DNA of 32,000 nt from Candidatus Fokinia solitaria (GTDB lineage: Bacteria; Pseudomonadota; Alphaproteobacteria; Rickettsiales; Midichloriaceae), in assembly GCF_003072485.1 (NCBI RefSeq), contig NZ_CP025989.1, forward strand, positions 1 to 32,000. Direction: 5' to 3'. The first letter of the stretch is position 1. Every line of letters starts with the position of its first letter. A program made the position numbers and the translations under genes. This document shows, piece after piece, positions 27,712 to 29,240 of the stretch. The notes below the pieces were generated by a model that worked only from the letters and a program-made list of their open reading frames with translations, did not search any database and was not told where the DNA came from.

Positions 27712-29240
<1,529 letters not shown>

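Follow-up and report, generated by a model that had tools for sequence, protein, structure and literature searches.

Results

The 16S rRNA gene and its surroundings

The window analysed here, the first 32 kb of the genome of 'Ca. Fokinia solitaria' (Midichloriaceae, Rickettsiales), is part of a single chromosome of 837,348 bp with position 1 at dnaA (PMC5905368), and the dnaA ORF at window positions 1-1464 fits that numbering. The genome paper described the smallest Rickettsiales genome known at that date, on a long branch reflecting fast sequence evolution; Shine-Dalgarno (SD) sequences and translation are unmentioned in it (PMC5905368). The window contains a 16S rRNA gene (rrs) that is unlinked to the 23S gene. 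The features at and around its ends are as follows.

27616..27704, plus strand: 5' leader strand of a predicted pre-16S processing stem, whose GTAAAGAAAAGAGAGACGGTAAG pairs with CTTATTGTCTCTCTTTTCTTTGC in the trailer
27712..29240, plus strand: rrs, the 16S rRNA gene of 'Ca. Fokinia solitaria' (Rfam RF00177 SSU_rRNA_bacteria, 1483 bits)
29204..29227, plus strand: helix 45 of the 16S rRNA, with the tetraloop AGAA at 29214-29217 where the consensus has GGAA (cmscan structure line)
29228..29240, plus strand: 16S 3' tail of 13 nt, GAUUACUUUACAG, without the CCUCC anti-SD core; the canonical tail is GAUCACCUCCUUA (cmscan and direct reading)
29262..29340, plus strand: 3' trailer strand of the predicted processing stem, in duplex with the leader

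The match of rrs to the Rfam model runs end to end (model positions 1-1533), indicating a full-length gene of 1529 nt. It is noted that the helix-6 (V1) hairpin carries an insertion of ~38 nt at about 27790-27827, as against 6 nt in the Rfam consensus.

Several other features of the window deserve mention. The rplR gene (ribosomal protein L18, Pfam 4e-34), at 19057-19413, is isolated, with fabG on one side and a rhodanese-domain gene (probably trhO) on the other; in a Rickettsiales metagenome-assembled genome (MAG) used below as a control, L18 is part of the usual S8-L6-L18-S5 cluster. This arrangement suggests a break-up of the ribosomal-protein operon in F. solitaria. A small phage- or GTA-like remnant at 2306-4683, adjoining tRNA-Val (2160-2236), comprises an HK97-type capsid gene (PF05065, 7e-46), a gp6-like head-tail connector gene (PF05135) and two short ORFs that match no family, joined via stop/start overlaps. 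F. solitaria has an intact gene of the TLC family (ATP/ADP translocase-like) at 20268-21686, which encodes 472 aa; its counterpart in 'Ca. Fokinia crypta' (19582-21065 of the locus compared) is called as two overlapping ORFs of 222 and 291 aa, suggesting that F. crypta has suffered a frameshift or pseudogenisation here.

The 16S 3' tail lacks the anti-SD core

The stem of helix 45 is intact according to cmscan, and the alignment continues without gaps to the 3' end of the gene, where GGAUUACUUUACAG of Fokinia stands against GGAUcACCUCCUUu of the Rfam consensus (the longer view ends in GUAGCCGUAGGAGAACCUGCGGCUGGAUUACUUUACAG). This alignment bears out the initial annotation, which had read the tail as lacking the CCUCC core. 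Its further remark that CCTCC is absent for well over 100 nt downstream also holds: no CCTCC is present in 29101-30000, a span that takes in the 760 nt past rrs, and the closest CTCC downstream of the tail is at 29410. As a control, 16S genes from other phyla with an identical helix-45 sequence were taken from a scan of a genome collection. In all 120 loci listed, CCTCC follows immediately after helix 45, and in 118 of them the sequence is CACCTCCTTT.

The same annotation had described the difference from the canonical tail as a clean loss of CTCC, which does not agree with the sequence. Removal of CTCC from ATTACCTCCTTA yields ATTACTTA, yet the gene reads ATTACTTTA, so that the change is not a single clean 4-nt deletion. 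The mutational path to the Fokinia tail cannot be reconstructed from the present data.

The AGAA loop of helix 45, equivalent to G1516A in E. coli numbering, was considered as a lineage-specific or linked peculiarity of the ribosome and rejected, as the variant is common across many phyla. It occurs in at least 120 genomes among those listed, from Campylobacterota, Clostridium, lactobacilli, Acidobacteriota and Planctomycetota, all of them with canonical tails. [quoted passage not shown]

A predicted processing stem bounds the mature 3' end

The sequences flanking rrs are predicted to form a long duplex. The leader-trailer pairing has an energy of -60.8 kcal/mol, against -31 ± 5 kcal/mol for shuffled trailers, and presumably represents the ordinary pre-16S processing stem of an rrs that is transcribed as a unit by itself. 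With this stem in place, rrs carries the hallmarks of an expressed and processed rRNA. The predicted stem would also bound the mature 16S 3' end, confining it to the 34-nt interval 29228-29261. No anti-SD-like sequence is present within this interval (GAUUACUUUACAGUAUAAAAAAUUAUAUAAAAUU). The pyrimidine-rich trailer sequence TCTCTCTTTTCTTTGC was considered as a cryptic anti-SD and rejected, since it makes up one side of the leader-trailer stem.

In the alignment with F. crypta, for which the trailer side was compared, the ~80 nt past the tail are near-identical and the similarity collapses beyond. The trailer being equally conserved, no specific function of the tail can be read from its conservation.

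The same tail is present in Ca. Fokinia crypta

The initial annotation had advised a comparison with the tails of the closest relatives. The 16S gene of F. crypta (CP110343.1), an independent assembly, ends in the identical tail GGAUUACUUUACAG. The two 16S sequences share 97.8% identity, and the order gatA-rrs-ftsI is common to the window and the F. crypta locus. In homology searches, GatA (29672-31123, minus strand) is 100% identical to the F. solitaria protein at NCBI, the F. crypta protein is 87% identical, and all remaining matches are at or below 52%.

These observations bear on whether the tail could be an artefact or a partial picture, being either an assembly or sequencing error or part of a degenerate rrs that exists beside a working, canonical-tailed copy. 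The window covers 32 kb of an 837-kb genome, which leaves space for such a second copy. However, the occurrence of the identical tail in a separate genome, with the gatA-rrs-ftsI context kept, excludes an assembly or read error. A degenerate copy is difficult to reconcile with a 16S gene that is full length, scores 1483 bits and has its leader-trailer stem intact. As for a second canonical copy, the 2024 survey of anti-SD sequences says that it listed organisms only after a check of all their rrs copies (PMC10783764), and F. solitaria is in its tables. The missing SD signal upstream of the genes, described below, also agrees with a true loss. We regard this explanation as extremely improbable.

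[quoted passage not shown] A metagenome scan with the Fokinia-specific helix-44 variant CTGAGGTAAAGTCG... yielded no environmental Fokinia relatives by which the loss might be dated more finely; the one match was an unrelated rRNA operon. This very AT-rich, tRNA-dense 16S-23S operon (Ga0316209_1000865, 194-5926) has the helix-44 variant CTGAGGTAAAGTCG together with a canonical CCTCC tail. It is otherwise unrelated to Fokinia and possibly derives from an organelle or another reduced symbiont.

No SD signal is found upstream of Fokinia genes

Start codons were collected for 31 genes in the window; seven longest-ORF starts at GTG or TTG were moved by eye to a nearby internal ATG, and atpE was added. 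From the F. crypta locus 15 starts were called, seven of them from genes without a counterpart in the window, giving a total of 38 independent Fokinia starts. SD usage was evaluated in two ways: by the presence of a core 4-mer (GGAG, GAGG or AGGA) at positions -18 to -4, compared with the rate at random sites, and by the duplex energy of positions -20 to -1 with the canonical Rickettsiales-type tail GAUUACCUCCUUA, compared with 1000 composition-matched shuffle sets. Two loci served as controls, one from a Rickettsiales MAG (52% GC) and one from a Rickettsia endosymbiont (GCA_964030945.1, 37% GC). Neither control locus includes rrs, as gatA does not lie beside rrs there, and their scores refer to the canonical tail rather than to their own; the tail of Rickettsia is taken from a published genus-level count. 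The results are as follows.

F. solitaria window: 31 genes, core 4-mer in 2/31, random-site rate 0.06, z = +0.65
F. crypta locus: 15 genes, core 4-mer in 1/15, random-site rate 0.07, z = -0.04
Rickettsiales MAG: 20 genes, core 4-mer in 9/20, random-site rate 0.09, z = -3.65
Rickettsia endosymbiont: 18 genes, core 4-mer in 2/18, random-site rate 0.06, z = -4.17

Across the 38 Fokinia starts there is no SD enrichment, neither in core 4-mers above the random-site rate nor in duplex energy beyond that of the shuffles. The hybridisation-energy comparison with the canonical anti-SD was among the checks initially proposed, there on a genome-wide scale, and its outcome for these starts, together with a core 4-mer count equal to the random rate, supports the earlier impression that genes in the window are essentially SD-less. 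The method picks up SD usage in equally small samples and in AT-rich relatives, and none in Fokinia. For comparison, a genome-wide value of 7% SD genes has been published for F. solitaria (PMC10783764).

In the Rickettsia endosymbiont, the pairing with the canonical tail arises via partial matches of the AAGG/TAGG type, despite a core 4-mer in just 2 of the 18 genes. AT-rich Rickettsia use the SD weakly, but they do use it.

One strong SD-like site was found in the window.

16331..16339, plus strand: AAGGAGAGG, SD-like site upstream of lepA and inside the rsfS coding sequence, -8.5 kcal/mol with the canonical tail

This is the sole strong SD-like site among the 31 window starts and forms the best duplex of the window. 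It had been singled out by eye as the only strong motif and as coding sequence of rsfS, and both points were confirmed; the identity of rsfS is supported by Pfam PF02410.

The new tail as a possible substitute anti-SD

The tail UUACUUUACAG could itself be a substitute anti-SD, in which case mRNAs would carry its A/U-rich complement (part of CUGUAAAGUAAUC, e.g. UAAAG or GUAAA) upstream of start codons. The tail is perfectly conserved across two species whose proteins have diverged to ~87% identity, an argument weakened by the ~80 nt of trailer that are as conserved as the tail, so that there is no tail-specific conservation. For the 38 independent Fokinia starts, k-mers taken from CTGTAAAGTAATC were counted and compared with shuffles.

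4-mers complementary to the tail: 25/38 genes, shuffle expectation 27.1, P = 0.85
5-mers complementary to the tail: 12/38 genes, shuffle expectation 8.3 ± 2.5, P = 0.096
6-mers complementary to the tail: 4/38 genes, shuffle expectation 2.5, P = 0.24

The weak excess of 5-mers is accompanied by a duplex energy with the actual tail slightly below the null (P = 0.14-0.17), and TAAAG occurs in 4 of the 38 upstream regions, where ~1.2 would be expected from its window-wide frequency. However, no test is significant. TAAAG was picked after seeing the data, its positions scatter from -9 to -1, and F. crypta has not kept the copy that precedes the ATG at 24642, reading CAAGA ATG there. The upstream regions of both Rickettsiales control loci pair with the Fokinia tail about equally well, with the same or a stronger trend, so that the slight pairing looks compositional. 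The initial annotation was right to caution that TAAAG before some starts could be due to chance, and the hybridisation with the actual tail that it had called for proved marginal.

In a survey of 128 organisms without an anti-SD, Amin et al. (2018, PMC6107228) found no variant tail that had a variant SD to go with it. Likewise, the 38 Fokinia starts show no enrichment of tail complements of the kind that defines a variant SD/variant anti-SD pair (class iii of PMC10783764, in which the two bind although no core is conserved). We consider a substitute anti-SD very improbable. The data offer no evidence of a pairing that replaces the lost one, and 38 genes are too few to exclude a weak one. Still less probable, in our estimate, is the more specific proposal that the invariant tail UUACUUUACAG pairs weakly with A/U-rich motifs such as UAAAG or GUAAA immediately upstream of some starts as a low-affinity replacement of SD/anti-SD pairing; if true, bacteria would thereby have their first documented case of a co-evolved variant pair.

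Start regions and the mode of initiation

The start regions had been expected to be A/U-rich and unstructured, and the measurements support this. Positions -20 to -1 have an A+T content of 75%, compared with 65% window-wide, and are depleted in C. Segments from -30 to +30 fold less stably than internal 60-mers (-6.5 vs -7.85 kcal/mol, P = 0.013), a modest effect that is largely due to the lower GC content (31% vs 35%). The ORF coordinates also confirm four stop/start overlaps noted previously.

3382..3385, plus strand: ATGA overlap of the capsid and head-tail connector genes (ORFs 2306-3385 and 3382-3888)
4249..4256, plus strand: 8-nt overlap (ORFs 3912-4256 and 4249-4683)
16341..16344, plus strand: ATGA overlap of rsfS and lepA (ORFs 15991-16344 and 16341-18158)
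23494..23497, plus strand: ATGA overlap of an MFS transporter gene and a pseudouridine synthase gene (ORFs 22238-23497 and 23494-24465)

The overlap of the MFS transporter and pseudouridine synthase genes is also found in F. crypta.

Gene arrangement is relevant to the possibility that initiation is mainly leaderless, with transcripts starting at or a few nucleotides from the start codon and the 70S ribosome or the 30S subunit binding a 5'-terminal AUG, as in many archaea and in mitochondria. Loss of both SD and anti-SD goes with leaderless initiation in Nanoarchaeia (PMC10783764) and in mitochondria, and the very A/T-rich sequence upstream of several Fokinia genes offers room for -10 boxes, even if hexamers resembling a -10 box are uninformative at 35% GC. 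In contrast, many co-directional genes are tightly packed or overlapping, including those at 3382, 4249, 16341 and 23494, so that many starts would be internal to polycistronic mRNAs, which argues against leaderless initiation as the general solution. We consider it unlikely, and markedly so, as the main mode in Fokinia.

With the core gone and the genes SD-less, start-codon choice by the 30S subunit must do without SD/anti-SD pairing. It would most likely follow the general SD-independent pathway (Lim 2012, PMC3457768; introduction of PMC10783764). The 30S subunit would capture the A/U-rich, weakly structured start regions, probably assisted by bS1, and the AUG start codon would be checked by fMet-tRNA and the initiation factors. 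At overlapping stop/start pairs, translational coupling may contribute. The loss itself is best understood as relaxed selection in a fast-evolving, AT-rich and reduced endosymbiont genome whose relatives are already weak SD users.

The conserved tail, and the missing SD signal in 38 genes as against two positive controls, support the initial reading of an anti-SD loss with SD-independent initiation. Overall, we consider it very probable that Fokinia has lost the CCUCC core and has UUACUUUACAG in its place, with SD-less genes that are initiated independently of SD pairing, and that this state results from relaxed selection, the tail being no replacement dock for mRNAs.

Discussion

Carsonella was the first organism in which an anti-SD loss was observed, in 2000. 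In 2012 it was reported for 15 of 1,182 complete genomes, among them Flavobacteriia, Sulcia, Blattabacterium, proteobacterial insect symbionts and hemoplasmas (PMC3457768), and in 2018 for 128 of 20,648 taxids (Amin et al. [quoted passage not shown] The 2024 survey lists Ca. Fokinia solitaria (GCA_003072485.1) in its Table 4 and S4 Table with the tail GATTACTTTACAGTA, marked 'this work' (PLoS One 2024, PMC10783764), and the S4 Table string is the same as the tail read here. Since the organism is already tabulated with its exact tail, the loss in F. solitaria is on record, and the present work is a confirmation, not a discovery. The description of the loss as very unusual for a bacterium, made at the outset, is correct in terms of frequency (128/20,648, PMC6107228); as a phenomenon it is well documented, and for this very organism (PMC10783764).

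Fokinia resembles the known non-anti-SD genomes of the SD-scarce class iv, which include Carsonella, Hodgkinia, Nasuia, Zinderia, Sulcia, Blattabacterium, hemotropic mycoplasmas and some Flavobacteriia (PMC3457768, PMC6107228). As in these bacteria, its tail past helix 45 is without CCUCC, its genes show no SD enrichment and no compensating variant SD is found, and it is an obligate intracellular organism with a reduced genome. Four features by which that class is recognised are found here: a full 16S gene with helix 45, absence of CCUCC, the same variant in a relative, and no SD enrichment. Compared to the insect nutritional symbionts (110-280 kb), Fokinia is far less reduced at 837 kb, and nothing essential differs. 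What sets it apart from other non-anti-SD bacteria is that its order, the Rickettsiales, includes lineages that keep the anti-SD: all taxids of Rickettsia (84), Wolbachia (34), Anaplasma (33) and Midichloria (1) retain it (PMC6107228 supplement), so that the loss is a derived state of the Fokinia lineage. A second Rickettsiales endosymbiont of protists, Ca. Phycorickettsia trachydisci, is also without CCUCC (S4 Table of PMC10783764). Its tail, GATTACCTAAAATAT, is unlike that of Fokinia in that ACCU is kept before the sequence diverges; the different tail, in a different lineage, indicates an independent loss.

A comparison can also be made with Bacteroidia, including Flavobacterium (PMC7797042, PMC13000453), where genes are likewise SD-less and initiation is SD-independent, on leaders that are A-rich. 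Unlike in Fokinia, CCUCC is retained there, is occluded by bS21, bS18 and bS6, and serves the autoregulation of rpsU. No canonical CCUCC is present in the Fokinia 16S; the sequence that would be sequestered in the Bacteroidia manner is gone.

Four results are added to the published record. F. crypta has the identical tail, so that the loss is older than the split of the two species. The predicted and conserved processing stem would confine the mature 3' end to an interval of 34 nt. Two similar-sized Rickettsiales samples keep a measurable SD signal where Fokinia has none, and the test for a compensating motif was negative. The first three of these (the F. crypta tail, the processing stem and the contrast with other Rickettsiales) are modest additions; the finding on the loss itself has its value as a correct reading of the raw sequence.

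[quoted passage not shown] The mitochondrial SSU rRNA, of alphaproteobacterial descent, has lost the anti-SD along with the SD of its mRNAs, and Fokinia provides a parallel case of reductive evolution in an intracellular lineage. Jakobid mitochondria still keep SD-like signals. Unlike mitochondria, Fokinia retains a full-length bacterial 16S rRNA (1529 nt), helix 45 and a processing stem that is predicted to be of the bacterial type. As an alphaproteobacterial endosymbiont of a eukaryotic cell (Paramecium), with a moderately reduced genome of 837 kb and relatives that still use the SD, Fokinia is a useful example and, for these reasons, a mid-stage analogue of the path towards mitochondria.
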